A stretch of DNA of 64,000 bases from Schmidtea polychroa (Eukaryota), in assembly GCA_044892525.1 (NCBI GenBank), contig CM097885.1, positions 30,320,001 through 30,384,000 on the forward strand, written 5' to 3'. The position numbers and the translations under genes were made by a program. Positions 15,485 to 64,000 of this stretch are shown here, one piece after another. The stretch's first letter is position 1. Each line of letters opens with the position of its first letter. A model generated the notes under the pieces. The model had not been told where the DNA came from, did no database searches, and was given only the letters and a program-made list of their open reading frames with translations.

Positions 15485-15515
<31 letters not shown>

Positions 15516-21500: not shown

Positions 21501-23204
21501 GAAATATAGTCATTTAAGGGATTTTAAGGAATCTTGTTAGTTTGAGGTGAATATATGATCTTTAACAAGTACTTATCGATAAGATACTAATCTTAAAAGA
21601 TATAGATATTTCAGGGAAATTTGATGCTTTTTAGATGATTTTATTGGAGAATTCATTTGGATATACCAATTATTCTCATTTAAATGAATTTTCTGGTTTG
21701 TTAGATGTTATCATTAGTTATCTAGTCTCTTTTGGAATTTAATGATAATTATTTTTATTGTAGATTGCTGACTTTGATAATTGTAATGAATTTATACTGA
21801 TTTTTTGAATATATTGAGAAATCAGTCAATCAATTTGAGTATATGTATTACTTTTAAAAAAATAATTAAAATTAATTTTATTTCAATTAATTTATTCAAT
21901 CTAAATCAATTATCTACTAGATCTTATTTCAAAGTTTTTATTAATTTATTATCTTAGTTGATTCAACTTGAATGATTAGTATTTTTTTTTATTTACCTGA
22001 TGATTAATGATTAAAATTCTTTCTTGTCCATTAATTAAATTTTTATGATATTTATTTTAAATAATTTAAATGTTTACAATTATTTAATCAATTTTTACCT
22101 AGTTATTGATGCCTTGAATTCAATTAATTTCTCATCCAATTTTTCAAGTGAAGAGTATTTACTTTTAAAGATCAATTTGTTAATACATAGTTGTTGGTTG
22201 TAGGTTGTTGGTTGTTAGTACTTGTTACTTGGTAGTTGGTATCTGATTGACTTTTTAGATTTTGATAAGAAGATATTGTATTTGATGAAGATTATTTTGT
22301 ATTTAATTGCTATTATTTTTATGTGTTGTTAGTTGATTGTTGGTACTTGGTATCTGGTTGATAGTATTTTGCTGATAGTCTTGGTATCTTGTTGTAAGTA
22401 CTTAACTGATAGCGTTTGGTATATTGTTGTAAGTACTTGGTATCTAGTTGAAAATACGTGTTTATAGTTACTGGTTGTTGGTACAACGTTGTTGGTATCT
22501 TGTATTTGGTAGTTGGTACAGTGTTGTTTACTGATTGTTGTTATATAGTTGTAGGTTGATAATGCTTAGTATCTGGTTGATGTACTTGGTATCTAGTTGT
22601 TGTTTGAAACCTAGTGGTTAGTACTTAGCAGCTAGTTAATGGGTAGGTGGGGGTTGAGTGTTACCAATATCCTTACGACTAGTACCCTTACGACTAATAC
22701 CTTTACGACCAGTACCCTTACGACCAGTACCTTTACGACCTGTACCCTTAGGGGGTCAAAACATCCTGTCGGATAAACACAGATACACAAATACTGATCA
22801 ACAATAAGTATTTATTGAATGCGTTTTTTACATTGCAATAATAAGTCAGTAGTTATCAATTAAAAGAAGAATGTTTTGTAATTTAAATTATTTTGAATTT
22901 CACTTGGTGTTTTAAAGTGATTGAGTTGTGGTTTTTTGATGAAAATCAACATTTTTGTTAAATTTGAAAAGGTTTTTCTACTGATTGTAATTAAAATTAT
23001 TATAGAAGCTGTATAAAAAAAAATTAATTTTAAAAAGCATTTCATAAAATACAATAAAAAATATTTAGTTGATTGTAAGTAGTTAGTTGTAAGTATCTGG
23101 TTGTTTGAGAGTTAGTATGTGGTATCACGTTGAAAGTATTTGTTAGCACCTAGTTAAAAATATTTAGTAACCGATTGTTGGTAACTGTTGAATTATTATT
23201 ATTA

Positions 23205-23252
<48 letters not shown>

Positions 23253-23689
23253 CATTTAAATTTTCATTTGACTTTGAAAAATATTTCATTAAAATTAACT
23301 TAAAAATTATTTCATTAAAATTTGTATTTAAAATTATCTTAAAAAATTTTGCATTTAAAATTAACTTAAAAAAATATTTCATTAAAAATTTTCATTAAAA
23401 ATTACATTTCTCAAAAAAGTTGGTGGTTATTCAATCTTTTGATAATAAATTTAAAATTCTTACTTTAATTTACTTATTTAGCTTTAATTTAAAATTTTGA
23501 CCATTGGATACTTAATTTTAAATTTTGAACCTTAATTTACTTATTTAAAATTTTTAACTTTAATTTACTTATCCTTAATTTGCCTATTTATCCTTTATTA
23601 CTTAATTTTACACCATAATTTACTAAACAACTAATTATAACCCTTATTTTCATATTTAACCAATAATTTCATGTGGTCATCTGGTTGTA

Positions 23690-31744: not shown

Positions 31745-32160
31745 TATTTCTTATATATTATTTCTTCTTGAGTTCTAGTTGTATCAACATTGTCCTCTGA
31801 CAGTTTTAATAGGCTTACTTAGATTAAAATTCAATTATTCCAAATCTTTCATTTAAAATTTATTTAAAATAATTGTTTGTTGAAAATTATTTTTAAAAAT
31901 AATTATTTAAAATTGTTTTTTATAATTTAAAAATTTTATAGATCTTATAATTTGTTTATAAATTATCAATATCCGTCGTGAATGTAGGTAACCTGATGAT
32001 GATAGTGATGCTATGGAAATATATAGTGAAAAAGATGTACGAATGACGATATATATATATTATTCCTAAAAATATAACGCGATGTTTAAAACAATTATCC
32101 ATAGCAAAGATTAGTTTTGTTTTTGTTTCGTTCCTAAACTTTTTCAATGTCATTTTTCAG

Positions 32161-38096
<5,936 letters not shown>

Positions 38097-38609
38097 AATT
38101 TTGTCAACTCGATTCGTTTTCGGTATTTTATTCCCGAATTTGTTTTTGAGTCTTCAATATAAATTATTAGAAAGATATTCATACTGATGGTAAAGGAGGT
38201 GGAAGGGGTGGGGGCGGTAATGAATTAACATTGTTATTAATTTAAGTGCACTTGATTATTCACTTGATATATTCAAAAAACTGATTACGTAATAATTTCC
38301 ATTATTCGAACAAACGATTTAAATGCGATTTAATTAATTTAATAATAATGATAATTATGCGTGCCAGCATTTATACTTATAATACTTTTTCTATATAATA
38401 ATATTTGTAACTTATAATACAATATATATTTTATTTATAAATTTGTTATTTCAATATTCCTAACAAACATTAAAATGTAGGAATTTTTGAACTTGAAGTA
38501 GTATACAAACCTTCGTACTGTAATTCACTTTGAAAAGTTACGAGAAGTAAATTAGGAATTGTTCAATCTCAAAATAGTAGGTAGAAGTGAGCCCACGATG
38601 ACTCATCGT

Positions 38610-38960
38610 TAAGGTCAACTTAAGGTCATAGAAAATTTTGAGGTCAACTTAAGGTCAAATTTTAAGGTCAATGTCATTTTCAGGTCAATTTAAGGTCAAT
38701 TTAAGCCATTTAAAGGTCAAATTCTGAGGTCAAAGTCGATTTTAGGCCATTTTAAGGTCAAATCTTGAGGTCAAAGTCGATTTTAGGCTATTTTAAGGTC
38801 AACTTCTGAGGCCAAAGTCTAATTTTTCCAAATTTTAAGGTCATAGGAAATTTTAAGGTCAACCCCCCTACCCCCTACCCCTATTTTTAAGGTCATAGAA
38901 AATTTTAAGGTCAACCCCCTACCCCCTACCCCTAATTTTAAGGTCAAATCAAGGTCAAAA
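38610..38960. repeat. Subterminal (A/G)AGGTCA repeat array with CCCCCTACCCCCTACCCC units; mirror at 48745-49212
   Basis: Seen directly; 2 C/G-tract units in the left arm and 4 in the right arm. Confidence 0.9.
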
Positions 38961-39464
38961 ATTAAAAATTTTCTAAGTCCATTTAACGAATTACTTTATA
39001 GAAAATTTTCAAAGTCAAAACACGTTTTAATACTACGTTTGCAAATGTCTTTGTTACTCATGCATTTGCATTGCAAATGTCTTTGTTACTCATGCACTTG
39101 TATTGCATATGTCTTTGTATTACACACCTTAAGGATAGAAAAATATTTCTAAGCGAGATCTAAAGTGAATGTGTGTAAAGGGCAATAAATAAGGGTAAAA
39201 TCAAAATTTTTTAAGAAAATACATGTAATTTGATTAAAATTTATGAAAACTATATATATATATATATTTGTTTTATTTTGGTCAGATAATCTATGTGTGT
39301 CTGTATATGAAAACATTGATAAGGAGCAATAAATAATGGACGGTTTTACTCACACACAAGTTTTATATCATTCGAAAGTCTACTATATATATAATACATA
39401 ATTGAATCGAATCAAAATAAGGGTAAAATAAATGGTAAAATAAAATGGTCATTATCAGACATTT

Positions 39465-39524
<60 letters not shown>

Positions 39525-39606
39525 ATCTATTTATTTTAAATAAAAATATGTAATTATGATCATAGTTAATTTAAGCACATATTTATTTCACTTTTCACAA
39601 AATAAT

Positions 39607-39656
39607 TTTAAAATACCACAACGTAATATATTTTCTATCTTAATTTTAATTGGCTG
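39607..39656 (+). promoter_or_regulatory. Putative pPolB promoter motif with inverted CCAAT; mirror at 48072-48121
   Basis: TTTTAAAATACC(A/G)CAACGTAATATATT..ATTTT(A/G)ATTGG is shared with element A (20395-20455); about 65 nt before the predicted ATG at 39718. Confidence 0.55.
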
Positions 39657-39717
39657 GAGAATAAAGTATGCTTTTCATTATAAACATTTTCATTATTACA
39701 AAATAACTTTAGAAATA

Positions 39718-42700
39718 ATGATCACAGACATCGATTACGAAAATGGTATTTTCATTATTTTTTAATTCATTTTAATATATATATATATATATTTATTTTC
39801 TAGATAGCGATTGTGTCATAATTGAAGAACATTTTGTTACTTCGATACCTGCAAACGAATATGGACGAAAAAGTTAAATAATAATAATTCATTGCTTATT
39901 CTTAATTGTCTTTTCCAGGAAATTTTAATGAGGATTCAGTTGATGATTCAGTTGCTTGTGCTGCTGGAACTATTGAATATTTCGCAAAGAAGATAAAATG
40001 TAAGTAAATTACAAAATTTAACTTAGATTTCTAGTTATATATTTCTTTGTTTAAGAAAATTTAAATTAGTAAAAAATGATATTTAATCAGATGTTAATAT
40101 TTAGATGAATTCATTTAAATAAATTTCTTAAAATTAATGAAAATTAGTAATATATTAATTATTAATTAAAATTAGTACAAAGTTAATATATTTACTGAAA
40201 TTATTTTTTAGACAATATTTTAATTATTGATAAGGAATATTATTTTTTACTATAAGTAACCTAATTATAGAAAAGATATTTATTATACCAGAAATAAACA
40301 GAATTCTGTCACTGATGTCAAATTAAAAAAATATAAACTTCTGCTTTTGATATCTCTGAGAATAATTTTCTAAAACAATTTTCATGAAAAATAGGTGAAG
40401 AAATTATATACTTTACCTGTTAAAGAAAAGTATGACTACAAAAACAATTGATGTTTCAGATTTTCAATATATAATATTAACAATTTTAATTGTATTATAA
40501 AAATTTCAGATTTGAAGATAAAAATGTTCATTTATGCAACTCAAATTTTTGCCCAAGTCCTTTGAAGCATAAATAATATACGTATCACATAAATACAAAT
40601 ATATTGATATATAAACTGAAAAAAAAAAGTACAAAGTTAATATATTTACTGAAATTATTTTTTTTAGACAATATTAATATAGTTATTGTTAGTTTATTTT
40701 AACTATATTACGACGATCAACTTTAATTTTATTATAAAAAAAAAATGATGAAAGTATAAATAAAACTTCATTTTAAAATCGAATTTTTATTTGCAATATT
40801 ATTTTTACATTAATCAACTAAGATGAGATTAATTTAAAATTTGATTGCATCACGAAACTTCTAGTATTTCATGTAAGTGAAATTAAAAGTATATGGATTG
40901 TTAAATAATTGTCATATTTCTATAGTTCTTTGTTTAAGAAAATTTAAAATAGTAAAAAAAAAATGATATTTAATCAGATGTTTATTGGTAAATATTTAGA
41001 TATTTAGATTTAGATTTAGATTTAAATAAATTTCTTAAAATTATTGAGAATTATTGAGACTTCCACTCCAAGGGCCATATATAATAAATTAGTACAAAGT
41101 TCAAATTTTAAATGAAATTTATTAGACAATATATATATTTTTTTAACTATATTAAGACGTTCAACATGAATTTTATTATAAAAAATAATGAAAGTATAAA
41201 TGAAACTTCATTTCAAAAATATGAATTGTGATAAAAAAAAAATTGAACAATTTTGAAATAACTAAGGGCATTCAATAATATTGTAACTCATTAAATAAAG
41301 TTTACATAGTGAGCTAAATGCTGCCCTTGTCCATTTTTATGGTGTATAGAGGTGAAAAATAAATTTAGATGCACAATGAAATTTAAAAGTGTAAATCTAT
41401 AAAAAGTTAAAATTTATAAAAAAAAAATTGAAAATTCGAAAAAATTAAAAATTGATGCATGTATGTACGTATGGCAAATAAAAAGACTAGCACAAATACA
41501 ATAAAATAAAATCATCTAGGACATCCACTTAATGATTTATTTTATGAATGATTATAATTGATTTTATCTTATTTTGAATTTGAATAAATAATTGAATATA
41601 CCCTGGACAAATTAACTTAATTATAAATTTTAATATATTAATAATTTTGGAATAATAATAATTAAGATAAATGATAATCAATAGAGATAAATGAATTACC
41701 GATAATATAAATGAAATTCAATATTATAAATAAACCATATAATTAAACCATTTAATGGTTAAAAATAAATAAAACATAAAACATAAAATAATAAAATAAA
41801 TATATTATAAAATTAAATAATTCCTTTTTATATTGCATTTCGCTATATAAACCAAGATCAAAATCAACCTTTCCGCCCATAAAAATATAAACTTTTGAGA
41901 GATGTTTATTGTTAAATATATTTAAAAAGAAACATAATAAAGCAATTGTAATTATTTAAGGCAATTTATACAAACAATGTTGCACCGCAAAAGAACATGA
42001 TGGGAAACAATGCCATGAAGCAATGGAAAAATACTATTTAAGAAATTATTATAATAAAAAATATTATTTATGCCCATTTTGCGAAGCTCTTTTCACTAAG
42101 CCCTATGAAATATTTTATAATGATCACAAAGATCATCTTACATATTTTAAATCTGATAAGAAAGAAATTTTTAAAAAATTATTTAATAACGGTATAATAG
42201 ACGTACCTACTAAAAAACAAAAACTTAATGATAACATCATCATTATAGATGAATCTGATGATGATGATGTTATCGTTATAGGTGAATCAAGGAATTTTTT
42301 AAATTATCAAATTGGTTGTGGATCAACTAATTTGATAGAAGATATTGAAGAATCAGTGGAAGAACCAGTGGAAGAACCGATGGAAGAACCTGTGGAAACG
42401 GAACAAATAGTAGAAGAGGACAATATATGGGATGATTTCCAGATTGTTAATGAATGGGAACCTACTGAAGAAGTCGAGATTGAATCTGACTTGAAAAATT
42501 GTCATAAAACAATTAAAATGTCGTTCAAAAACATGAATGAGATAAATCTACCCGAAAATTTCTCTGAGAAACTATTATCTACAATCAAGGAGATGAAAAC
42601 TGTGAAAGTTCAATTCGGGATAGAATGTGATTTCGAAAAGGATGGAGAATTCCAATCATCAAGATTTTCTAACAAAGCGGTGATGGTAACTGAGAACAAT

Positions 42701-43774
42701 TTTGAAAAGTTTATTGCAGATGGTATTGAAAAGCTGCACGAGAAAATTCATATCAGATCGGAACTTGGAAGCGGATGGCGTCTGATAAGAATAATTGAAA
42801 TAAATTTCAAAATAACTAAGATTTCCGAAATATCCAGATTATCCGGAAGAAATTATATTCCAACTCCGAAAGCCTTAATAAATAAAAATGCATTAATAAA
42901 TGTGATCAACGGAGATGATATGTGTTTCATATACAGTGTGCTAGCCAATTTGAAAAAAGATATCATTATTACTGATAATACAAATGTTGAAAATTATACA
43001 CAGTTCTTATCCGAATTGGTATATAATGAATTAGATATGCCAATGAAATTGAAGGACATTTCAAAATTCGAAAAGCATAACGAAGGAATTGCTATCAATG
43101 TCCTCAGTTACAATCCTAAAAATATGATTGATATCGATAATGTGGATATTATAATGAAACATCCACATATTGATATAATACATCGGACTAAAGTAACTGG
43201 GGTTACACCGATGTATTTACTATTGTTAGAATCGAATGGCCAATACCACTATACTGCAGTTCCAGATTTACAGCGATTAATGAATTGTAGAAAAACTCAT
43301 AGTTGCCCAGTCCGTATTCAATGCAGATGGTGCGAGACATGTTTAAATGGTTTTAGAAGAGAAGATGCTTTTGACAGGCATGTAGCTTTATGCAAGAAAA
43401 ACCAATTGGGCACAACATTATACACGTTGCCAGAAAACTCAGATTTAAAATTTAATGACTGGTCAAAAATGGTAACTCCGCCTTTTGTTATATATGCTGA
43501 CTTCGAAGCTGTTTTACCTCTTGATGAAATATGGGCTCAATCAATTTCCTCATTGGAGTCTCAGCTGCATACCAACAAGCACTGAGAAATTTTTAACATT
43601 GATAGCATGGCTGGGTAAATTTACAATAAGATTTATTTACTCATATCAGTTTGTCAATACTTCATTACATACTGCAGTAAAAACATTGAACGACTTGCCT
43701 TTGACCCGTTCAGTATTCAATACTGCAACCATCATAAACAACAAAGGAATTTTTCCTTATGATTTTGCCACAAG
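39718..43774 (+). pseudogene. Truncated pPolB, left copy. Predicted exons 39718-39745, 39804-39872, 39919-39999, 41961 onward; internal deletion and frameshift at 43529; stop at 43585
   Basis: ELGSGW, DMCFIYSVL, YHY, CETC..H..C and Exo I YADFEA present; after the deletion KYGLNQFPHW..KGIFPYDFAT continues in another frame. No polymerase motifs A/B/C. Confidence 0.9.
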
Positions 43775-46700
43775 TGAGGAAATTGATTGAGCCCATATTT
43801 CAAAATGTGATGTAGATCATACCCTTTCAGATTATGAAATACGATGGGTAATGTTTCTCTGATTTTCCTTTGTTGATTGCATACATTGCATGAGGCTCCG
43901 AGATATATGCCAGTGAAATGATCATGGTCTTTCACTTTCTCTGGCATTGGCTTTTTGCACAAGTAACAATTGACTGCTGTGTGGAATTGCAGCTTTTCCT
44001 GATTTGTCAAAAATTTCATTTGACAATGCCCTCTTGTCTTATAATAAACCTTCACTATATTGTTGACAATATTTTCTACATCCATCAGAAATCTGTATAC
44101 ACAATCTGGTCCAATAAAATGACTATATTTCGTTGACCCAGTAAAATTATTTACCAGTAACAGCCCCGCTGCTATAGGTAAATGTTTTTGGTGTTGTCTT
44201 TCATCAAGAGGTAAAACAGCTTCGAAGTCAGCATATATAACAAAAGGCGGAGTTACCATTTTTGACCAGTCATTAAATTTTAAATCTGAGTTTTCTGGCA
44301 ACGTGTATAATGTTGTGCCCAATTGGTTTTTCTTGCATAAAGCTACATGCCTGTCAAAAGCATCTTCTCTTCTAAAACCATTTAAACATGTCTCGCACCA
44401 TCTGCATTGAATACGGACTGGGCAACTATGAGTTTTTCTACAATTCATTAATCGCTGTAAATCTGGAACTGCAGTATAGTGGTATTGGCCATTCGATTCT
44501 AACAATAGTAAATACATCGGTGTAACCCCAGTTACTTTAGTCCGATGTATTATATCAATATGTGGATGTTTCATTATAATATCCACATTATCGATATCAA
44601 TTATATTTTTAGGATTGTAACTGAGGACATTGATAGCAATTCCTTCGTTATGCTTTTCGAATTTTGAAATGTCCTTCAATTTCATTGGCATATCTAATTC
44701 ATTATATACCAATTCGGATAAGAACTGTGTATAATTTTCAACATTTGTATTATCAGTAATAATGATATCTTTTTTCAAATTGGCTAGCACACTGTATATG
44801 AAACACATATCATCTCCGTTGATCACATTTATTAATGCATTTTTATTTATTAAGGCTTTCGGAGTTGGAATATAATTTCTTCCGGATAATCTGGATATTT
44901 CGGAAATCTTAGTTATTTTGAAATTTATTTCAATTATTCTTATCAGACGCCATCCGCTTCCAAGTTCCGATCTGATATGAATTTTCTCGTGCAGCTTTTC
45001 AATACCATCTGCAATAAACTTTTCAAAATTGTTCTCAGTTACCATCACCGCTTTGTTAGAAAATCTTGATGATTGGAATTCTCCATCCTTTTCGAAATCA
45101 CATTCTATCCCGAATTGAACTTTCACAGTTTTCATCTCCTTGATTGTAGATAATAGTTTCTCAGAGAAATTTTCGGGTAGATTTATCTCATTCATGTTTT
45201 TGAACGACATTTTAATTGTTTTATGACAATTTTTCAAGTCAGATTCAATCTCGACTTCTTCAGTAGGTTCCCATTCATTAACAATCTGGAAATCATCCCA
45301 TATATTGTCCTCTTCTACTATTTGTTCCGTTTCCACAGGTTCTTCCATCGGTTCTTCCACTGGTTCTTCCACTGATTCTTCAATATCTTCTATCAAATTA
45401 GTTGATCCACAACCAATTTGATAATTTAAAAAATTCCTTGATTCACCTATAACGATAACATCATCATCATCAGATTCATCTATAATGATGATGTTATCAT
45501 TAAGTTTTTGTTTTTTAGTAGGTACGTCTATTATACCGTTATTAAATAATTTTTTAAAAATTTCTTTCTTATCAGATTTAAAATATGTAAGATGATCTTT
45601 GTGATCATTATAAAATATTTCATAGGGCTTAGTGAAAAGAGCTTCGCAAAATGGGCATAAATAATATTTTTTATTATAATAATTTCTTAAATAGTATTTT
45701 TCCATTGCTTCATGGCATTGTTTCCCATCATGTTCTTTTGCGGTGCAACATTGTTTGTATAAATTGCCTTAAATAATTACAATTGCTTTATTATGTTTCT
45801 TTTTAAATATATTTAACAATAAACATCTCTCAAAAGTTTATATTTTTATGGGCGGAAAGGTTGATTTTGATCTTGGTTTATATAGCGAAATGCAATATAA
45901 AAAGGAATTATTTAATTTTATAATATATTTATTTTATTATTTTATGTTTTATGTTTTATTTATTTTTAACCATTAAATGGTTTAATTATATGGTTTATTT
46001 ATAATATTGAATTTCATTTATATTATCGGTAATTCATTTATCTCTATTGATTATCATTTATCTTAATTATTATTATTCCAAAATTATTAATATATTAAAA
46101 TTTATAATTAAGTTAATTTGTCCAGGGTATATTCAATTATTTATTCAAATTCAAAATAAGATAAAATCAATTATAATCATTCATAAAATAAATCATTAAG
46201 TGGATGTCCTAGATGATTTTATTTTATTGTATTTGTGCTAGTCTTTTTATTTGCCATACGTACATACATGCATCAATTTTTAATTTTTTCGAATTTTCAA
46301 TTTTTTTTTTATAAATTTTAACTTTTTATAGATTTACACTTTTAAATTTCATTGTGCATCTAAATTTATTTTTCACCTCTATACACCATAAAAATGGACA
46401 AGGGCAGCATTTAGCTCACTATGTAAACTTTATTTAATGAGTTACAATATTATTGAATGCCCTTAGTTATTTCAAAATTGTTCAATTTTTTTTTTATCAC
46501 AATTCATATTTTTGAAATGAAGTTTCATTTATACTTTCATTATTTTTTATAATAAAATTCATGTTGAACGTCTTAATATAGTTAAAAAAATATATATATT
46601 GTCTAATAAATTTCATTTAAAATTTGAACTTTGTACTAATTTATTATATATGGCCCTTGGAGTGGAAGTCTCAATAATTCTCAATAATTTTAAGAAATTT

Positions 46701-48010
46701 ATTTAAATCTAAATCTAAATCTAAATATCTAAATATTTACCAATAAACATCTGATTAAATATCATTTTTTTTTTACTATTTTAAATTTTCTTAAACAAAG
46801 AACTATAGAAATATGACAATTATTTAACAATCCATATACTTTTAATTTCACTTACATGAAATACTAGAAGTTTCGTGATGCAATCAAATTTTAAATTAAT
46901 CTCATCTTAGTTGATTAATGTAAAAATAATATTGCAAATAAAAATTCGATTTTAAAATGAAGTTTTATTTATACTTTCATCATTTTTTTTTTATAATAAA
47001 ATTAAAGTTGATCGTCGTAATATAGTTAAAATAAACTAACAATAACTATATTAATATTGTCTAAAAAAAATAATTTCAGTAAATATATTAACTTTGTACT
47101 TTTTTTTTTCAGTTTATATATCAATATATTTGTATTTATGTGATACGTATATTATTTATGCTTCAAAGGACTTGGGCAAAAATTTGAGTTGCATAAATGA
47201 ACATTTTTATCTTCAAATCTGAAATTTTTATAATACAATTAAAATTGTTAATATTATATATTGAAAATCTGAAACATCAATTGTTTTTGTAGTCATACTT
47301 TTCTTTAACAGGTAAAGTATATAATTTCTTCACCTATTTTTCATGAAAATTGTTTTAGAAAATTATTCTCAGAGATATCAAAAGCAGAAGTTTATATTTT
47401 TTTAATTTGACATCAGTGACAGAATTCTGTTTATTTCTGGTATAATAAATATCTTTTCTATAATTAGGTTACTTATAGTAAAAAATAATATTCCTTATCA
47501 ATAATTAAAATATTGTCTAAAAAATAATTTCAGTAAATATATTAACTTTGTACTAATTTTAATTAATAATTAATATATTACTAATTTTCATTAATTTTAA
47601 GAAATTTATTTAAATGAATTCATCTAAATATTAACATCTGATTAAATATCATTTTTTACTAATTTAAATTTTCTTAAACAAAGAAATATATAACTAGAAA
47701 TCTAAGTTAAATTTTGTAATTTACTTACATTTTATCTTCTTTGCGAAATATTCAATAGTTCCAGCAGCACAAGCAACTGAATCATCAACTGAATCCTCAT
47801 TAAAATTTCCTGGAAAAGACAATTAAGAATAAGCAATGAATTATTATTATTTAACTTTTTCGTCCATATTCGTTTGCAGGTATCGAAGTAACAAAATGTT
47901 CTTCAATTATGACACAATCGCTATCTAGAAAATATATATATATATATATATATTAAAATGAATTAAAAAATAATGAAAATACCATTTTCGTAATCGATGT
48001 CTGTGATCAT
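43732..48010 (-). pseudogene. Truncated pPolB, right copy (657-aa ORF 45705-43732 plus mirrored 5' exons from 48010)
   Basis: Identical to the left copy except M/I in NPKN(M/I)ID; continues through CYLC..DHDHFTG..CNVCN and Exo II FHNLKGYD; homology stops at FPH (43775). Confidence 0.9.
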
Positions 48011-48201
48011 TATTTCTAAAGTTATTTTGTAATAATGAAAATGTTTATAATGAAAAGCATACTTTATTCTCCAGCCAATTAAAATTAAGATAGAAAATAT
48101 ATTACGTTGTGGTATTTTAAAATTATTTTGTGAAAAGTGAAATAAATATGTGCTTAAATTAACTATGATCATAATTACATATTTTTATTTAAAATAAATA
48201 G

Positions 48202-48235
<34 letters not shown>

Positions 48236-49538
48236 AAATGTCTGATAATGACCATTTTATTTTACCATTTATTTTACCCTTATTTTGATTCGATTCAATT
48301 ATGTATTATATATATAGTAGACTTTCGAATGATATAAAACTTGTGTGTGAGTAAAACCGTCCATTATTTATTGCTCCTTATCAATGTTTTCATATACAGA
48401 CACACATAGATTATCTGACCAAAATAAAACAAATATATATATATATATATAGTTTTCATAAATTTTAATCAAATTACATGTATTTTCTTAAAAAATTTTG
48501 ATTTTACCCTTATTTATTGCCCTTTACACACATTCACTTTAGATCTCGCTTAGAAATATTTTTCTATCCTTAAGGTGTGTAATACAAAGACATATGCAAT
48601 ACAAGTGCATGAGTAACAAAGACATTTGCAATGCAAATGCATGAGTAACAAAGACATTTGCAAACGTAGTATTAAAACGTGTTTTGACTTTGAAAATTTT
48701 CTATAAAGTAATTCGTTAAATGGACTTAGAAAATTTTTAATTTTTGACCTTGATTTGACCTTAAAATTAGGGGTAGGGGGTAGGGGGTTGACCTTAAAAT
48801 TTTCTATGACCTTAAAAATAGGGGTAGGGGTAGGGGGGTTGACCTTAAAATTTTCTATGACCTTAAAAATAGGGGTAGGGGGTAGGGGGGTTGACCTTAA
48901 AATTTTCTATGACCTTAAAATTTTCTATGACCTTAATAATAGGGGTAGGGGTAGGGGGGTTGACCTTAAAATTTTCTATGACCTTAAAATTTGGAAAAAT
49001 TAGACTTTGGCCTCAGAAGTTGACCTTAAAATAGCCTAAAATCGACTTTGACCTCAAGATTTCACCTTAAAATGGCCTAAAATCGACTTTGACCTCAGAA
49101 TTTGACCTTAAAATGGCTTAAATTGACCTTAAATTGACCTGAAAATGACATTGGCCTTAAAATTTGACCTTAAGTTGACCTCAAAATTTTCTATGACCTT
49201 AAGTTGACCTTAACGATGAGTCATCGTGGGCTCACTTCTACCTACTACTGTATAATTTCTTTTGTTTTAATTGGATAAATTGCATGTTTTGTCAATTTGA
49301 CTTCAATAAAATAAACTGCACTACAACGTATATCGATTATTCTCTTATGTTTTCTCTTAGAAAATATAAAATTATACCAACACTAAAATATCACTTAAAA
49401 CCAAATTCAGCAAATTACGCTGTTACAGAATATCCTTCCCTGTGCTTTTCCTCTAATAGTGTCAAATCTGAAAGTATGTTGGGCTATATATTTTCTCTAT
49501 TTTGGCTATCTGCCAGATATATATTATTGAAACTGGTT

Positions 49539-53925: not shown

Positions 53926-54739
53926 AGCTCGTTGACTTGAAGATAGTTATGGTCGATTACAGCGGAAAACAGCTGAAGAATGGAAACAGAAGTTCTGTAT
54001 CAAGTTTGTGACTTGCTGTAATGGAAAAAAAATTTTTTTTGTTAAATGTAACTACAAATTATTATTTTACATTTTATTATTTTATTATTATGCTTTTTCT
54101 TGGAGTAGCTTGTGTCGTTACCGCAATATGTATTCATGCCCAATATCGTTTGGATTTCAAATGAGCAATTTTAAGACAGTTAATAGAAAATTATTAAACT
54201 TTTAAAATTATTCATGTGAAAAATTACATTCTAATAATCATTCAAAAAAAATATTAAAAAGTATTTTTCCATTTCATTATTAAATATTTCTCTTTCATCT
54301 TCCTTGTAATAGAAATTCGATTTTCCAATATAACTAGCTTCCTATCTAAATGTTGAGTGTATCTTAATGATTGAAAGCTATCAATTATGCATTATTAGTA
54401 GGGAGTTAGTGGCCCACGGCAGCAATAGGGGGGGGGGGTAAAAAATGTTGCAAACTTTTGATTGCATAACTTTTTCCGTAGACATTTTTTGATTACATAA
54501 TTGTTGCCGTAATGCCCAATGTTTTCTGGGATTTTAAATACAAATTTTTTTTTTTTTTTTTTTTTTCAATAAACAAGCCAAGGATAAATATTATTTGGGT
54601 GGGTCTCCTTGGTCCTGAGAATTTCAATAGAAAAAGGTAGTCTTCAATAAAAAAGCATGGATTTTTCACACTATAGTGAGGGGATCTTCTTGGTCATGAG
54701 AATTTCAATAGAAAAGGTGGTTTACATTAAAAAACGCAT

Positions 54740-55400
54740 AGTAAATTTTTAAAATAAAGTAAATTATGGGTCTAAAATTTAAAAATAAAGTAAATGATGG
54801 GTCTAAAAATTTAAGTAAATCAAGGTTCAGATTTATTTTTGAAATAAAGTAAATTATGGTCTAAATAAGTAAATTATGGGCTAAGATTTTTCAATTAAAG
54901 TAAATAATGGTTCTAAAAAATTAAATTACAGTAAATTATGGTCCAAATTTTTAAATTAAAGTAAATTATGGTTCTTAAAAATTAAATTAAAGTAAATTAT
55001 GGTTCTTAAAAATTAAATTAAAGTAAATTATGGTCAAAATTTTTGAATTACAGTCCAAAAATTTAAATTAAAGTAAATTATGATCCAAATTTTTAAATTA
55101 AAGTAAATAATGGTTCTAAAAAATTAAATTAAAGTAAATAATGGTCCAAATATTTTAAATTACAGTAAATAATGGTTCTAAAAATTAAATTACAGTAAAT
55201 AATGGTCAAAAATTTTAAAATTAAAGTAAATTATGGTTCTAAAAATTAAATTAAAGTTAATTAAGGTCCAAATTTTAAAATTAAATAATCAATGGTAAAA
55301 AAAAATTTAAATTAAAGTTAAATAAGTAAATTAAAGTAATAATTTTTAAATAAGTAAATTAAAGTAATGTAATAAGTAAATTAAAGTAAGATTTTTAAAT
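54740..55400. repeat. Subterminal tandem array of about 30-bp units (AATTAAAGTAAATTATGGT..)
   Basis: Seen directly; inverted homologue of 25250-26265. Confidence 0.9.
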
Positions 55401-55575
55401 TTATTAACAAAAATAGAAGGTGTTTGAGAATTGAAATTTTTTAATGGAAATTTTAATGAATTATTTTTTAAGTAATTTTTAATAGAAATTTTTATGAATA
55501 ATTTTCAATGGTAATTTTTAATGGAAATTTTAATAGAATAATTTTTAAGATAATTTTTAATGAAAATTTTTATGA

Positions 55576-55625
<50 letters not shown>

Positions 55626-55798
55626 TAATATTAATAATATATCAACCAAATACTATACAACACATAAAAAATTAACTAAACACATAAAAATAACTAGACA
55701 CATAACAAAACATATAAACATTAACTAAACACATAAAAATGAACTAGACACATAACAAACATAAAAATTTACCAAATAACAAATGTAAAGATATAAAA

Positions 55799-55804
55799 TT
55801 TATT
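55799..55804 (-). terminator. Putative polyadenylation signal of pPolB
   Basis: AATAAA on the minus strand 8 nt after the stop codon, followed by a T/GT-rich tract (55790-55640). Confidence 0.5.
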
Positions 55805-55812
55805 CAATAAAA

Positions 55813-58800
55813 TTAGTCCTCATCGGACAAAATAACGTCATCGATATCGATGTCATCTTCTCCAAAATCTTCATTTAATTCTTCCTCATCTTCTCCATCA
55901 TTTTCTCCAACATTTTCTGAAACATTTTCTGCAACAATTTCTCCAACATTTTCTCCAATATTTAATTCACTTAATCTTACATGCCCATATGCAAGACTAG
56001 TATTTTGCCCCACCCAAACCCTTTTGTCATCTTTGTTAGTTAGTGCTATTTTTGTGTTTTTAATTGTAAAAATTTGATGATTTTTGCTTGTTATTTTAGT
56101 CTGAGGAACCGAAAAAATCTGGTTAGTGTTATAACAATCCAGGTATGACTGATGTTTTATGTCACTACCTTTCAATGTTACACCTTTAGCCTTTTTTGTT
56201 TCCTCATCACCCAACAAGCTATAACATTTAGGTCTAAGAAAAACCCACTCCTTATATTTAAGACCTTTATTCTCGTCTTTGAACTTTCCAATGACTGAAT
56301 CAAGGTTCTTACTATATAAGGAATGACAACTATTGTAATTGGAAGTATCCAATAAATTATCTCGAACCATTGCAGGTAAAAGAACCTCAAGTTTGCAGTT
56401 AATGACTTCGAGGAAAAAAGAATCTGTATCACCTGCAACGATATTAATTTTACAATTAAACTCATTGCGAAATGATTCCAGATCCTTATATTGCAATTCA
56501 TACATTCTAAGTTTAGATAGATCAAGTACAGATTGACCAATGTAACTCGGTCTATCTAAACATATAGAATCGGAATTCAATAGTGCTGCAATTAAATTAT
56601 CTGCTATTTTAATAGATTTTTTAAAAGTCGGTTTTGACGAATATTTAACTAATTTACCGGCAGTTGTACAAAGACGAAGATTCATTCTTCTCTTTAAATT
56701 TTCAACTGTTTTGCCGTATAAACTATTATTTAGCAATTTATAATAATTTTTATCTAAGCTATTTACGCTTTTTGATCTTAATTCGGTATTTGTATCTATA
56801 TATTTTTTAAAAATTGGTGATTGCTTAAATCTTACACCCCTATTTACACGTGTTACTTTAACACCAAGTTCCAAATATAATTTTAATAATCTCCAATGAA
56901 TAACATAATTAGATTTTGGAAGATGAGTTAATAATAATTTTTCAACCTTAGACCCAGCAGGTTTCATTTTTTCAGCAGCTACAGGGAAATCATCCAACTT
57001 ATCATGAAGCTCAGAAGGAATTACAAGATCAACTTCAAGTGTGTATCCATAAGACAAAGATTCAAGATTTAAATTCCTACATTCATCCATTATTTTATCA
57101 AATCCATCAAGAACCCAACAAAATTCGCCACAAGGTAATGATTGACTTAAAGCCCAGCCATAAAGATTATTAATATCTATATATAGTAACTCAGTGTTCT
57201 CGTCGGTTTTTACGTAATGCTTATTCACAAAAGTAAGACCGCCTCTTATTCCACCCTCATAAAAGCTAAACATTTCGTTTTCAGTTATGAGTTCAATTGG
57301 TTCATTTAAAGACATTAATGCAGAAGACCAAGACATGCCTGGAATTCCGAAATAATTCAATGGTTCCAATCTATTGTGAGCAATGGATTTCAACCGAAAC
57401 TGATGAAAGAAATCAGCCAAAAGAAAACAATCAAGTTTTAGGTAGATCATCATATAATCTAATAAAGTTACGCAATTAGTTTCTACCCAAATCTCCTGAG
57501 CTTTTTCATACTCAAGCTCAGTGACACCCTCCCAGATTGGTGGTAATTCATAAGTAGTTTGGAGAATATCTAAAGAAGTGGCGAAATTATAAGGGAAGAT
57601 TCCTTTTTCACTTACTATGGTGCCAGAAAAAGCAGAATTAGTAAAAGGCAAAGAATTCAAAGTTTTGACTGCTTTAGCCAAAGAATCATTGACAAATTGA
57701 TACGAATCAATGAATCTTAGGCTAATTTTACCTAAATGCGCAATCAAAGATATAAATTTTTCCGTAGTTATTGGGATGCACCCTAAATTCCAATTTTTAA
57801 ATTTATTTAATCCATATTTAAGTATATGGTGCATATCGTATCCCTTCAAGTTGTGAAATACGATAGGCAAAATTTTATTTATTTTCCTATTTACGTTACA
57901 TGTGCTACAAGCTGCACCCAAGTATTTCCCCGTAAAATGATCGTGATCTCTAACAGGATCGACGATAGATTTCATACAAAGATAACAAACAGATGCACTA
58001 ACAAATTGACGTTGTTCAATTTTTGTTAATTTCATCATAGGTTTCCTATCCATTTTATAATAAAAAGGAAGAACCTTATTTAATGCTATATCCTCTATAG
58101 CACTTAAAAAACTCTCGACGCAATCTAAACCTATGAACTGCTGATAAGATTTAGATCCGTCAAAGTTATTTACAAGTAAAAGACCAGCAGATATTGGCAT
58201 GTGTCGTTGGAAATGATCATTATCAGAAGGTAAAATAGCCTCAAAATCTGCATAAACTACAAAAGGAGGAGTTACTGTTTTCGACCAGTCAGTAAACTGT
58301 AATAATTTATTTTGAGGGAAGGTGTAAAGAGTTGTTCCTAATTGATTACGTTTACATAATATTTCATGTTTTTCTAGTGCGTGTTTATTATTAAACCCAT
58401 TCAAACACCGATGGCACCATAATGAACGTATGCGTGTAGGACAACTAGTGTTGATATGACAATTCATTAACTTATTTAAATTACTTATAGCAACGTAATG
58501 GAAATTGTTTCCTTTATTTAATAATAGTAAATTAATTACAGTTCCATTTAAAACTTTGGAACGATGTATAATATCTAAATGTGGGTGTTTTAATACGTAA
58601 TTATCTATTAATTGTTTGTTATTGTCATAAGAAAAAACGTTAATTATTAAGCCTGGATTTTTGGCCTCGAATTTTCTAATATCTTTTAATTTCATGGGTA
58701 AGTCCAATGGATTATATATTAATTCAGATAAATTATAACTGGATGTCCTATTTCTAGCATAACTACTAACCTCATCATATTTTAAAATAGCTAAAATGCT

Positions 58801-60154
58801 ATATAAAAAACATGAATCATCGGTGTTTTTTATATTAATTAAACAATATTTATTTTTTAGATAAGTAGGTGTTTCAATGAAACTCCTACCACTTAATCTA
58901 CTTAGCCTACTTATTTTTGTTATGGTGAAATGTATTTCAGTGATATTTTTTATATTCCAACTGCTTCCTAACTCAGTAATATTAGTAATTTTCTCATTTA
59001 ATTCCTTAATGCCTTCATCAAAAAATGATGCAGTTAAAGGCTTTGCATAATTTGAGATATTATTAACCTTTATTTCCCCGTCTTTTTCAAATTCGATTGT
59101 TATTCCGAATTGAATTTTGACGGAGCCTAATTCGTTAATAATATCTCGTAATTTTTTTATTAGTTGTTCAGGAAATATTATTTCTTTTATATTTAAGTCG
59201 CTTGTATTTAAGCTTAATATTTGATGGGTACCTCTTAGATCTTTTTGTATTATTGGAACATTTCCACCTATTTGTATTATATTTAATCCATCCCAAGAGT
59301 CAAGGGAAATATTATCTAATCCAACCTGGGATTCAACAACCAATCCATCATGGGATTCGACAACCAATCCATCATTGGATTCCACAAAAGGCAATCCGAC
59401 CTGGGATTCAAAAGAAGAAGTATCTAATTTAATTTTTTTATTTTTATTATTTTTTTCTATAGTTGAGGGTCTTTTAAAAACACTATCTTTTTTAAAATTA
59501 AACCTATCTAAATGATTTTTATGTTTATTATAAAAAACGCTATATGTTACGGGGTCACTAGTCTTACATACGGGACATATAAAATAAGTTTTATTATAAT
59601 ATTTTTTCGTATAATAATTCTCCATTATAGAATGGCAATTATTATCATGTTCTTTCGATGAACAATAATTTGGGTAAAGTATACCTATAAAATAAAAATT
59701 TAATAAAAAAAATATAATTTAAATGAAATATTTTAGTAAATGTTTACGCAAAAATTTGCAAATTATTATTATTTTACAAATTTTATTTACTAAAAAATAA
59801 AAATTTACTAAATTAAAAATATTAACATTTACTTAAATAAAAAATTATATTAAATTTCCTTTAAATTATAAAAAGTAATCAATACTTACATTGTAAATTT
59901 TCATTTCGATTTATTGACACATTGACATAATTTTTTTCTTTATTCGTATTACCTAAATTATTAATTAATTAAATCAATAAATTAAAAATTATGTTTACTT
60001 TTTCTTTTCAAATTTCCTTTAATCTTAGATTTTAAATTGTCTTCATTAATATTATCTAAATTAATTAATAAATTAATTAATAAATAAATTAAAATTTACC
60101 AAATTTCTGAATTTTTTCTCGGACATTCATAACGTTTTCTATTAAAGAATTCAT
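55813..60154 (-). CDS. polB: Intact protein-primed family B DNA polymerase (Polinton/Maverick type). Exons 60154-60100, 60055-59999, 59952-59890, 59684-55813; predicted 1348 aa (1270-aa ORF from 59625)
   Basis: Exo I YADFEA, Exo II FHNLKGYD, Exo III YLKLD, KGIFPY, Pol A YIDINNLYG, Pol B KLLNNSLYGK, Pol C GDTDS, RPKCY, KAKGV, DDKR; endonuclease VII-like insert DHDHFTGKYLGAACSTCN. Three GT-AG introns splice in frame. Confidence 0.95.
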
Positions 60155-60746
60155 TTTTAAAGGTTAACTATTTGTTAAATGTGACTAATGATTGATTATT
60201 GTTTATAGATTATTATTGTTTATAGATTATTATTGTTCATAGGAACAAATTCTAACCAATCAAAATCAAGGAAGGGTAGGAAAAAATTAATTTATTTTAA
60301 AACACATTTTGACGCTAAAGTTGACTTATTTAACATTTTCATAATAATTTAATAAAAATAATGTGATGAACCCACAAAGTAATATCATTTTTCATCAAAT
60401 TGTAAAACAGTAATAACGTTTTCATAAAATTGTAACAAAGTAATAACATATTTCAGATAATTTTTCAACAGTTGTAAAATATTTAAGCAAATTGTAACAA
60501 GATTAGAAAATATTACAACAAAGTAGTAACATATTTCAGAAAATTTCAACAAATTTGTAAAATATTTATCAAATTGTAACTAAAATAATAAAAATATTGC
60601 AACAAAGTAATAAAATAATAATGGTAATTAAGACAAATCAATACATTATTTCGAAGACGGACAACAAATTAAAAAGAATATTGTAACTAAAATAATAAAA
60701 ATATTGCAACAAAGTAATAAAATAATACAACATTTTAAACTCTAGA

Positions 60747-61160
60747 TCAATCCATTTTATAGAAAATTAAATTCTATCTATATAATATATGAATAAATAT
60801 CCAAGGAAATTACGTTAACGTATAATAAATACAAATTTATCGTAAAAACATGTGTGTATTACACACAAAACAAGATACATAATTTCTAATCAATCCATTT
60901 TATAGAAAATTAAATTTTATCTATATATTATATGAATAAAATCCTAAGAAAATTACGTTAACTGTATGAAAAATACAAATTTATCATAAAAACATGTGTG
61001 TATTACACACAACATACGAGACATAATTTTTAATCAAGCTATTTTATAGAAAATTAAATTTTATCTATATATTATATGAATAAAATCCTAAGAAAATTAC
61101 GTTAACCGCGCGAAAAATACAAATTTATTGTAAAAACATGTGTGCATTACACACAAAGTA
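60747..61160. repeat. Three tandem units of about 143 bp next to the axis; mirror at 61290-61700
   Basis: Units start at about 60747, 60890 and 61034; each has TACGTTAAC and a TGTG(TG)..TTACACACA mini-hairpin. Confidence 0.9.
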
Positions 61161-61179
61161 TCAAACTGAAATTGTAATT

Positions 61180-61267
61180 GCGCCATGTTGTAGAGAATTA
61201 AATTCTCCCTATACATGGTTACACTTAAATCTCGATCAGACATGTGAAAAGAGACATAAAAGATAAA
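61180..61267. other. Asymmetric central spacer with an internal imperfect hairpin (61183-61218)
   Basis: CCATGT-TGTA-GAGAATT-A-AATTCTC-CCTAT-ACATGG folds back on itself. Confidence 0.75.
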
Positions 61268-62120
61268 AATTACAATTTCAGTTTGATACTTTGTGTGTAA
61301 TGCACACATGTTTTTACAATAAATTTGTATTTTTCGCGCGGTTAACGTAATTTTCTTAGGATTTTATTCATATAATATATAGATAAAATTTAATTTTCTA
61401 TAAAATAGCTTGATTAAAAATTATGTCTCGTATGTTGTGTGTAATACACACATGTTTTTATGATAAATTTGTATTTTTCATACAGTTAACGTAATTTTCT
61501 TAGGATTTTATTCATATAATATATAGATAAAATTTAATTTTCTATAAAATGGATTGATTAGAAATTATGTATCTTGTTTTGTGTGTAATACACACATGTT
61601 TTTACGATAAATTTGTATTTATTATACGATAACGTAATTTCCTTGGATATTTATTCATATATTATATAGATAAAATTTAATTTTCTATAAAATGGATTGA
61701 TCTAGAGTTTAAAATGTTGTATTATTTTATTACTTTGTTGCAATATTTTTATTATTTTAGTTACAATATTCTTTTTAATTTGTTGTCCGTCTTCGAAATA
61801 ATGTATTGATTTGTCTTAATTACCATTATTATTTTATTACTTTGTTGCAATATTTTTATTATTTTAGTTACAATTTGATAAATATTTTACAAATTTGTTG
61901 AAATTTTCTGAAATATGTTACTACTTTGTTGTAATATTTTCTAATCTTGTTACAATTTGCTTAAATATTTTACAACTGTTGAAAAATTATCTGAAATATG
62001 TTATTACTTTGTTACAATTTTATGAAAACGTTATTACTGTTTTACAATTTGATGAAAAATGATATTACTTTGTGGGTTCATCACATTATTTTTATTAAAT
62101 TATTATGAAAATGTTAAATA

Positions 62121-62195
62121 AGTCAACTTTAGCGTCAAAATGTGTTTTAAAATAAATTAATTTTTTCCTACCCTTCCTTGATTTTGATTGGTTAG
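62121..62195 (+). promoter_or_regulatory. Putative pPolB promoter motif; mirror at 60252-60326
   Basis: TTTAGCGTCAAAATGTGTTTT..TTCC(T/A)TGATTTTGATTGGTTAG is shared with element A (20352-20455); about 100 nt before ATG 62293. Confidence 0.6.
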
Positions 62196-62292
62196 AATTT
62201 GTTCCTATGAACAATAATAATCTATAAACAATAATAATCTATAAACAATAATCAATCATTAGTCACATTTAACAAATAGTTAACCTTTAAAA

Positions 62293-64000
62293 ATGAATTC
62301 TTTAATAGAAAACGTTATGAATGTCCGAGAAAAAATTCAGAAATTTGGTAAATTTTAATTTATTTATTAATTAATTTATTAATTAATTTAGATAATATTA
62401 ATGAAGACAATTTAAAATCTAAGATTAAAGGAAATTTGAAAAGAAAAAGTAAACATAATTTTTAATTTATTGATTTAATTAATTAATAATTTAGGTAATA
62501 CGAATAAAGAAAAAAATTATGTCAATGTGTCAATAAATCGAAATGAAAATTTACAATGTAAGTATTGATTACTTTTTATAATTTAAAGGAAATTTAATAT
62601 AATTTTTTATTTAAGTAAATGTTAATATTTTTAATTTAGTAAATTTTTATTTTTTAGTAAATAAAATTTGTAAAATAATAATAATTTGCAAATTTTTGCG
62701 TAAACATTTACTAAAATATTTCATTTAAATTATATTTTTTTTATTAAATTTTTATTTTATAGGTATACTTTACCCAAATTATTGTTCATCGAAAGAACAT
62801 GATAATAATTGCCATTCTATAATGGAGAATTATTATACGAAAAAATATTATAATAAAACTTATTTTATATGTCCCGTATGTAAGACTAGTGACCCCGTAA
62901 CATATAGCGTTTTTTATAATAAACATAAAAATCATTTAGATAGGTTTAATTTTAAAAAAGATAGTGTTTTTAAAAGACCCTCAACTATAGAAAAAAATAA
63001 TAAAAATAAAAAAATTAAATTAGATACTTCTTCTTTTGAATCCCAGGTCGGATTGCCTTTTGTGGAATCCAATGATGGATTGGTTGTCGAATCCCATGAT
63101 GGATTGGTTGTTGAATCCCAGGTTGGATTAGATAATATTTCCCTTGACTCTTGGGATGGATTAAATATAATACAAATAGGTGGAAATGTTCCAATAATAC
63201 AAAAAGATCTAAGAGGTACCCATCAAATATTAAGCTTAAATACAAGCGACTTAAATATAAAAGAAATAATATTTCCTGAACAACTAATAAAAAAATTACG
63301 AGATATTATTAACGAATTAGGCTCCGTCAAAATTCAATTCGGAATAACAATCGAATTTGAAAAAGACGGGGAAATAAAGGTTAATAATATCTCAAATTAT
63401 GCAAAGCCTTTAACTGCATCATTTTTTGATGAAGGCATTAAGGAATTAAATGAGAAAATTACTAATATTACTGAGTTAGGAAGCAGTTGGAATATAAAAA
63501 ATATCACTGAAATACATTTCACCATAACAAAAATAAGTAGGCTAAGTAGATTAAGTGGTAGGAGTTTCATTGAAACACCTACTTATCTAAAAAATAAATA
63601 TTGTTTAATTAATATAAAAAACACCGATGATTCATGTTTTTTATATAGCATTTTAGCTATTTTAAAATATGATGAGGTTAGTAGTTATGCTAGAAATAGG
63701 ACATCCAGTTATAATTTATCTGAATTAATATATAATCCATTGGACTTACCCATGAAATTAAAAGATATTAGAAAATTCGAGGCCAAAAATCCAGGCTTAA
63801 TAATTAACGTTTTTTCTTATGACAATAACAAACAATTAATAGATAATTACGTATTAAAACACCCACATTTAGATATTATACATCGTTCCAAAGTTTTAAA
63901 TGGAACTGTAATTAATTTACTATTATTAAATAAAGGAAACAATTTCCATTACGTTGCTATAAGTAATTTAAATAAGTTAATGAATTGTCATATCAACACT
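62293..64000 (+). CDS. polB: Second (mirror) copy of pPolB, open to the window end. Exons 62293-62347, 62392-62448, 62495-62557, 62763 onward
   Basis: Reverse complement of 60154-58447; ATG GAG AAT (MENYY) at 62822. Absent from the ORF track, presumably because no stop falls in the window. Confidence 0.9.

Follow-up and report, generated by a model that had tools for sequence, protein, structure and literature searches.

Animal Polintons are the closest described systems to the elements considered here. Intact vertebrate Polintons are described as having no introns (passages of PMC8097293), the core genes of nematode Polintons are intronless with introns only in cargo genes (passages of bioRxiv 10.1101/2022.07.12.499685), and endogenous mavirus-like elements are likewise intronless (passages of PMC8547959). 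Here, we analysed a stretch of 64,000 nt of Schmidtea polychroa DNA (GCA_044892525.1, CM097885.1, positions 30,320,001-30,384,000 of the forward strand), hereafter the window, in which all plain coordinates are given. The surrounding genome is AT-rich and 781 Mb in size, and the window contains two elements, assigned to families B and C, that carry genes for a protein-primed family B polymerase (pPolB). As in animal Polintons, we found pPolB, AGT...ACT ends, terminal inverted repeats and a 6-bp target duplication, together with an integrase, an ATPase and an adenovirus-type protease in full-length elements. Unlike in animal Polintons, introns are predicted in pPolB, integrase and protease. Furthermore, element C departs from usual Polintons in having just two mirror-image pPolB genes. 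Our analysis points to a pPolB leader joined by host splicing, with an ancestral intron in a Cys codon and a turnover of the leader in each family, a reading that we consider probable.

Three other systems invite comparison. The pPolB with terminal protein (TP) and vOTU domains described in passages of PMC11161782 also has a little-finger-like TP domain followed by an OTU fold, whereas the pPolB studied here has an extra Cys/His domain and a predicted spliced leader ahead of TP; the words "intron" and "splic" are absent from the main text of that paper. Adenovirus E2B is similar in that a protein-primed polymerase and a terminal protein are expressed via host splicing (passages of PMC9499273), and pTP is annotated with a 9-nt upstream coding exon (a table of PMC2397415). 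It differs in that one far-upstream exon serves two proteins, whereas here family-specific mini-exons with 44-58-nt introns precede a fused TP-polymerase. The adenovirus polymerase uses the same upstream exon as pTP; our literature search gave no confirmation of this. Eupolintovirus introners of dinoflagellates are also spliceosomal-type introns inside integrated Polinton-like elements, but they are mostly young secondary insertions of repeated families, about one quarter of them in coding regions (passages of PMC12166617). Here, by contrast, there is no repeat family and one intron is fixed across families that are 56-60% identical. An introner family was rejected as a candidate source, as the short introns do not form a mutually similar repeated set: 6 of 45 pairs gave p <0.05, none <0.008, and all of these were low-complexity AT. 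The literature searched (titles, abstract beginnings and passages, with subscription papers, Repbase and supplements outside) contained no description of a conserved spliced pPolB leader in an animal Polinton.

The last pPolB intron and its split cysteine codon

The right-arm pPolB of element C has a large exon 4 (62763..64000, + strand), which encodes Cys/His, TP-like and vOTU-like domains and whose frame continues past the window. It is preceded by a 205-nt phase-1 intron 3 with a GTAAGT donor (62558..62762, +), at a position common to families B, C, D, E, F and G. The last base of the predicted 63-nt exon 3 (62495..62557, +) is the T of a Cys codon split by this intron. In element B, a phase-1 intron 3 of 1961 nt (40000..41960, +) occupies the same position. 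Conservation of the junctions in other copies had been proposed as a check in the preliminary description, and it was found for the last acceptor: among 91 arms that represent six families, counted after removal of one spurious row, 87 have a large exon starting with AG|G-T/C at the equivalent position, and the other four are both arms of two C copies. The intron sequence in front of this acceptor is unrelated between families. A T|GTAAG donor lies upstream in the reference copy of each family; the donor is lost in E copy L039, and in three further E copies the end of the exon before the last intron could not be placed. This intron is thus common to six families whose pPolB identity is as low as 56%; its length lies between 0.2 and 3.5 kb, and it can hold a nested gene. 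In family F, an apparent opposite-strand gene with its own intron, recognized by eye, lies within the last pPolB intron (L035, ~130-640 nt upstream of the large exon).

The split Cys was compared with public proteins. A set of 155 proteins (the best 150 of 272 matches plus 5 cluster members) yielded 32 motif rows, and removal of 4 duplicates and 2 N-terminally cut rows left 26 motifs in 23 proteins. All 26 motifs have a Cys 5-7 residues before the second Cys, and the Cys that splicing would complete in C stands 7 before it. Many of these proteins begin with a Met two to five residues ahead of that Cys, and some have frames that end in intron-like tails. Furthermore, in L117, a metagenome contig whose polymerase is 47% identical, the whole polymerase lies in one frame that starts from Met-x-Cys behind a TATA box. 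The conserved Cys and this intronless outside relative provide independent support for the splicing of intron 3 and for its gain in the ancestor of the families. Without splicing, the C protein would start at the Met at 62819 and lose the first half of its Cys/His domain. We consider it highly probable that intron 3 is spliced.

Intron 3 is not the only one to interrupt a motif that is contiguous in relatives. In the integrase, the D-x-G-x-E-F motif is split by a phase-1 intron of 42-99 nt in seven copies (two each of F, D and B, and one D-like neighbour), and both F copies have three in-frame stops in that intron. Among public integrase matches, the motif is unbroken in 18/26 and the remaining 8 have diverged motifs. 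In the protease of F, D, B and G, a phase-2 intron of 37-54 nt comes right after the start codon. The motif pattern used missed the G integrase and the L054 protease. The presence of introns in integrase and protease as well indicates that intron gain was lineage-wide and not specific to the polymerase. The F integrase intron (L036) is flanked by a 10-nt direct repeat containing AG|GT, as would be expected if an intron arose through duplication at a proto-splice site.

Predicted leader exons of C and B

Upstream of exon 3, the C leader comprises a predicted exon 1 of 55 nt that begins with ATG (62293..62347, +), intron 1 (62348..62391, +; 44 nt, GT-AG, phase 1, 5% GC), a predicted exon 2 of 57 nt with a basic K-R-K run at its end (62392..62448, +) and intron 2 (62449..62494, +; 46 nt, GT-AG, phase 1, 9% GC). 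In B, exons 1-3 (39718..39999, +) are placed at 39718-39745, 39804-39872 and 39919-39999, with introns of 58 and 46 nt. The six introns of the preliminary description (44, 46 and 205 nt in C; 58, 46 and 1961 nt in B) all proved to have GT...AG ends where it had placed them and to be in phase 1. The in-frame splicing that it had proposed also held, with stop-free exons contributing 78 codons in C and 80 in B before the first Met of the large exon. GT-AG ends, a consensus donor, a T-rich acceptor and a kept frame, features of U2-type spliceosomal introns, are all present. The short introns have 5-9% GC (22% in B intron 2) and the mini-exons 16-36%.

We carried out a blind search for ATG-started, stop-free three-exon chains, using splice matrices built from 25 donors and 26 acceptors of other families or genes. 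For C, this search returned exactly the three exons given above with a score of 47.0. Any chain was found in only 14 of 200 dinucleotide shuffles, the best scoring 12.9, and the best of 92 real stretches of the window reached 23.1. Exon 1 has the same length in 52 of 54 C arms. In an alignment of 31 C copies, exons 1-3 contained two 1-nt indels, each in a single copy, compared with five gap runs in the short introns and 20, many of them shared, in the last intron, whose length varies from 186 to 226 nt. Indels common to several copies fall only in introns. Because exon lengths are fixed while intron lengths vary and shared indels are confined to introns, C introns 1 and 2 look real from their sequence. 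The three-exon C leader is very probably correct as predicted. The exons on either side of introns 1 and 2 have no homologue outside these families. Where the block upstream could be aligned, in 54 C arms and 12 B copies, no intron-lacking copy was found; no genome-wide search for processed copies was made.

Promoter-like boxes are also present upstream of exon 1. Both a CCAAT-type box and TATAAAY were found in C, B, D and the outside relative L125, whereas the background expectation is ~0.2 per 260 nt for either box; in E the CCAAT-type box occurs alone, and in F TATAAAY alone. In C, the candidate promoter boxes (62186..62246, +) are an inverted CCAAT at 62186 and TATAAAC at 62223 and 62240, and neither type of box occurs in the last C intron.

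Alignments over 55800-60420 came from four runs, among which X1, X2 and X7 are only presumed to be RNA and consist entirely of contigs. Depth in X1 was ~200-360 near the 3' end of the gene, dropping to 21 where exon 4 begins and to 1-5 over the leader. One X2 contig enters intron 3 by 27 nt and one X1 contig by ~25 nt, with a bridging threshold of 31 letters. A deeper X1 contig that appears to end near the acceptor was rejected as a sign of splicing, as it carries a 3-nt deletion found also in F, whose intron differs.

Origin of the leader and competing explanations

The preliminary description held all three introns to be conserved between B and C. The data support this for the third, given its shared position in six families, but not for introns 1 and 2, as the leaders do not align and exon numbers and sizes differ. 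Alignment of the B and C leader peptides did not rise above shuffles (p 0.095 for the whole leader; 0.69, 0.09 and 0.55 by exon), and of 21 leader pairs tested only D against its own subfamily was significant. There are four upstream exons in D and E, two in G and one or two in F, and the C exons measure 55/57/63 nt vs 28/69/81 nt in B. Polymerase identity is 94% between C and F, 58% between C and D, 60% between C and B and 56% between B and D. In a tree that took in B, C, D and F, these families form one clade (support 100/99) with L117 outside, and the D branch falls between those of B and C. In B, C, D and E, every coding leader intron is in phase 1. First exons differ among the D subfamilies but end at the same phase-1 junction, and in five of six cases the length changes of mini-exons in D and E are +3, +6 or +9 nt. 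Four phase-1 introns of 40-50 nt are present in each of the outside relatives L120 and L125, and in L120 two adjacent 66-nt exons are identical at 53/66 positions, a tandem duplication of a symmetric exon.

These data bear on the proposal that all three introns were inherited from the common ancestor of B and C and that the small exons have since diverged past recognition. Where polymerases are 60% identical, low-complexity leaders that evolve fast can have lost every trace of similarity, and B and C do agree in exon number, phase, leader length (78/80 aa), the 46 nt of intron 2, the basic end of exon 2 and the Asp at junction 1. However, an Asp from G|AT and a Ser or Arg from A|G would be the commonest outcomes of a phase-1 consensus. 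Inheritance also sits poorly with B and C leaders that align no better than shuffles, with exon sizes and upstream exon numbers that differ among families, with D branching between B and C, and with F, which carries a leader unrelated to that of C despite the near identity of their polymerases. We consider common inheritance of all three introns unlikely.

We favour instead the reading of a host-spliced leader with one ancestral intron. Host RNA polymerase II would likely transcribe pPolB, starting from a promoter that lies ahead of exon 1, and the host spliceosome would join a short, low-complexity leader to the large exon, completing the first Cys of the N-terminal Cys/His domain. One phase-1 intron may have been gained inside that Cys codon, two codons behind the ancestral start and before the split of families B to G, and this gain would have moved the start codon into an upstream exon. 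The leader would then have grown and turned over in each family through gain, duplication and exchange of small exons. Nearly all leader introns would be in phase 1 because exons flanked by phase-1 introns can be added or lost without a frameshift; we infer that the first such intron set the register, which was then preserved as small exons were gained, duplicated and swapped. As the leader and the Cys/His domain precede the TP domain, they would remain on the DNA-end-bound protein after the proposed vOTU cleavage, and the basic runs in the leader could help nuclear import.

Spliceosomal introns imply nuclear expression by RNA polymerase II. The preliminary suggestion of such expression therefore follows if these introns are spliceosomal, and the promoter-like boxes upstream of exon 1 agree with it. 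The accompanying suggestion of DNA-only propagation is true but uninformative, being expected of any Polinton. A much bolder extension, which we regard as doubtful, is that this animal Polinton clade depends on host splicing in all its catalytic genes, that the phase-1 mini-exon cassette is swapped as a promoter-plus-targeting module and remodels the genome-linked terminal protein, and that regulated splicing of the Cys intron sets the cells in which the element and its offshoot C replicate.

Several observations weigh against the favoured reading. None of the junctions listed (15 of 49, all from the deep run X3) equals a predicted intron, and no transcript was seen spliced. Variable sites are not rarer in mini-exons than in introns (12.6% vs 9.8% in C, 6.7% vs 5.6% in B), AT-rich introns are indel-prone in any case, and in 14 of 54 C arms the start or a splice site is lost, the frame is shifted or stopped, or an exon edge could not be placed. 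The B model is weaker than that of C: its blind search scored 22.1, which was matched by 1 of 200 shuffles, and it agreed with the model in all three donors and in the first acceptor while placing the ATG at 39556 and the exon-3 acceptor at 39940 instead of 39919, so that both the start codon and the exon-3 acceptor have in-frame alternatives. In F, an in-frame ATG lies 16 nt before the acceptor, and an unspliced start without the first Cys is possible there. G lacks both promoter boxes within 260 nt, and its first coding intron is in phase 0. The polymerase tree covers only B, C, D and F of the six families, and the 23 Cys/His proteins may include products of stand-alone genes that are not polymerases, as in L149 (below). 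Exon duplication was seen in L120 only, the short introns of C itself are barely alike (p 0.034, one of the six pairs below 0.05 among the 45), and the idea of a phase register leaves the two phase-1 introns of L125 within conserved domains and the phase-1 integrase intron unexplained. Finally, zinc binding by the Cys/His domain and nuclear import through the leader are putative roles read from residue patterns only.

The leader could also be a control device, in which host-regulated splicing of the last intron or skipping of mini-exons gates the polymerase with a whole Cys/His domain. Symmetric phase-1 exons could be skipped without a frameshift, the last intron has been retained in all six families despite its span of 0.2-3.5 kb and a possible nested gene, and the adenovirus polymerase and pTP are products of alternative splicing (passages of PMC9499273). 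Retention is, however, explained without regulation, since with the start codon upstream the loss of the intron needs an exact deletion. Furthermore, the domain is present in the intronless L117 too, the introns yielded no conserved element, and the integrase and protease introns speak for general intron gain, making a regulatory leader improbable. That the mini-exons are chance GT/AG matches in AT-rich DNA and that translation begins with the first Met of the large exon is very improbable: the missing spliced reads, the unlowered substitution rate of mini-exons and one public protein called from the equivalent Met (P0001) fit it, but the domain's conserved Cys, C, H and C would then be present in the DNA yet never translated, the F integrase would end at a stop inside its catalytic core, and the blind-search recovery, the shared acceptor, the intronless L117 and the promoter boxes would go unexplained.

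A host-spliced leader would have practical consequences. Polinton surveys judge intactness by uninterrupted open reading frames (ORFs; passages of PMC8097293), and PMC10748475 filters on the length of the pPolB ORF. If the leader is spliced, ORF screens truncate the N-terminus of the polymerase and would class family F, with an integrase frame that stops within the catalytic core, as dead. Introns that spread with young multi-copy elements would tie expression to the host nucleus and spliceosome, would testify to a long stay in a single host lineage and may restrict transfer to hosts whose intron rules differ. Together, L117 without introns and L120 with its duplicated exon offer a compact case of intron gain.

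Polymerase domains, elements and neighbouring genes

The large exon of C holds an open frame of 1301 aa with exonuclease and polymerase motifs, which makes it a protein-primed family B polymerase. Pfam PF03175 matched one of eight aligned relatives and not C itself, and a sequence search of the PDB with pPolB returned zero matches. Residues 132-427 of exon 4 gave a confident predicted fold (pLDDT 91.5), in which a little-finger-like domain (best match 4IR1: Z 8.0, rmsd 2.4, 90 aligned) precedes an OTU fold (4BOP: Z 6.5, rmsd 3.6, 107 aligned) that has its Cys and His in place. These Z scores are middling, and the TP-vOTU order is as in PMC11161782. Foldseek returned nothing at E 0.001 for the TP-vOTU model. 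For the Cys/His domain, neither the fold search (best Z 2.8) nor the Atlas search (best score 0.80) gave a match, and its profile matched 2 of 101 public loci; a homologue search with pPolB residues 1-260 returned nothing at E 0.001 among proteins of 708-2256 aa. In the outside relative L149, a Cys/His domain heads a separate multi-intron gene downstream of pPolB (L149:995-2190). The HNH/endonuclease VII domain PF02945 matched seven of eight aligned relatives, and C at E 0.0025, which is below the curated cut-off; the pPolB2 class is defined with an HNH insertion (PMC10748475).

Element C is a non-autonomous Polinton derivative, a right-end fold-back in the form of a pPolB-only palindrome of 13.6 kb that has the ends of a Polinton and is flanked by a 6-bp target duplication. 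Its left end (54391..55650, +) has the target duplication at 54391-54396, the terminus AGTAGGGAG from 54397 and tandem subterminal repeats, and its right end is at G000:C1:30388003. The arms flank a non-palindromic centre of 88 nt (61180..61267), and 62100-62900 is identical to its mirror at 801/801 letters. The mirror copy of exons 1-3 (59890..60154, -) lies at 60100-60154, 59999-60055 and 59890-59952 with zero mismatches, and that of exon 4 (55813..59684, -) has the complete pPolB frame including the stop codon. The interval 59684-62822, to which the preliminary description had assigned its introns, thus spans both arms, so that the C exons are present twice on opposite strands, with the minus-strand exon 4 running from 59684 down.

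The large C exon has at least 105 near-identical matches in the genome, mostly in head-to-head pairs (105 scored of 12,376 candidates). Seven C elements read end to end are palindromes of 13.6-15.4 kb, all with AGT...ACT ends, terminal inverted repeats and a 6-bp target duplication; the same ends and 6-bp target duplication were found in F_L055, D_L037 and E_L039. In none of the seven is there a frame of at least 200 aa besides the two pPolB genes, and integrase, packaging ATPase and cysteine protease are therefore absent. C would have to borrow its integrase from elsewhere. Among 24 C elements, element-private variants occurred in both arms 55 times and in one arm 13 times, and the own arm was strictly the closest sequence in 16/24, with six of the remainder tied at zero. 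It seems that one arm templates the other at each birth, or that later conversion occurs. The palindrome centres vary by copy from 88 to 1774 nt (L002-L019 elements), and in several of them the arms turn at a D-type Polinton end, where the fold-back may first have arisen.

The B copy of the window (38575-49247) is a tail-to-tail left-end fold-back in which both polymerases are truncated, including exon 4 (41961..43585, +); other B copies are full-length Polintons. Its mirror copy of the gene start (43732..48010, -) has exons at 47983-48010, 47856-47924 and 47729-47809 and continues from 45767 down. Full-length Polintons of ~14-17 kb were found in the same genome in families F, D, B and G. Those of F and D encode an rve integrase, a Pox_A32 ATPase and a Peptidase_C5 adenovirus-type protease by Pfam, and have further frames of the size and place expected of Polintons but without a Pfam match. 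The element of family E (L039 with L064-L065) measures 7.5 kb, carries pPolB and one other gene between short inverted ends, and has a 6-bp target duplication.

Elsewhere in the window, 15160-23680 is another long, diverged inverted repeat without long frames that has subterminal repeats in common with C, and 32115-38096 holds a host F-box/leucine-rich-repeat gene with a hAT remnant inside. In family G, a Bcl-2 family gene (PF00452, E 1.3e-7) lies just upstream of the pPolB leader (L087:2478-2933, -), and frames at the same place in B and E may be related to it. Full-length Polintons also carry a short TATA-binding-protein homologue (PF00352, E 5e-16; L061:526-1035, +), head to head with the ATPase gene.

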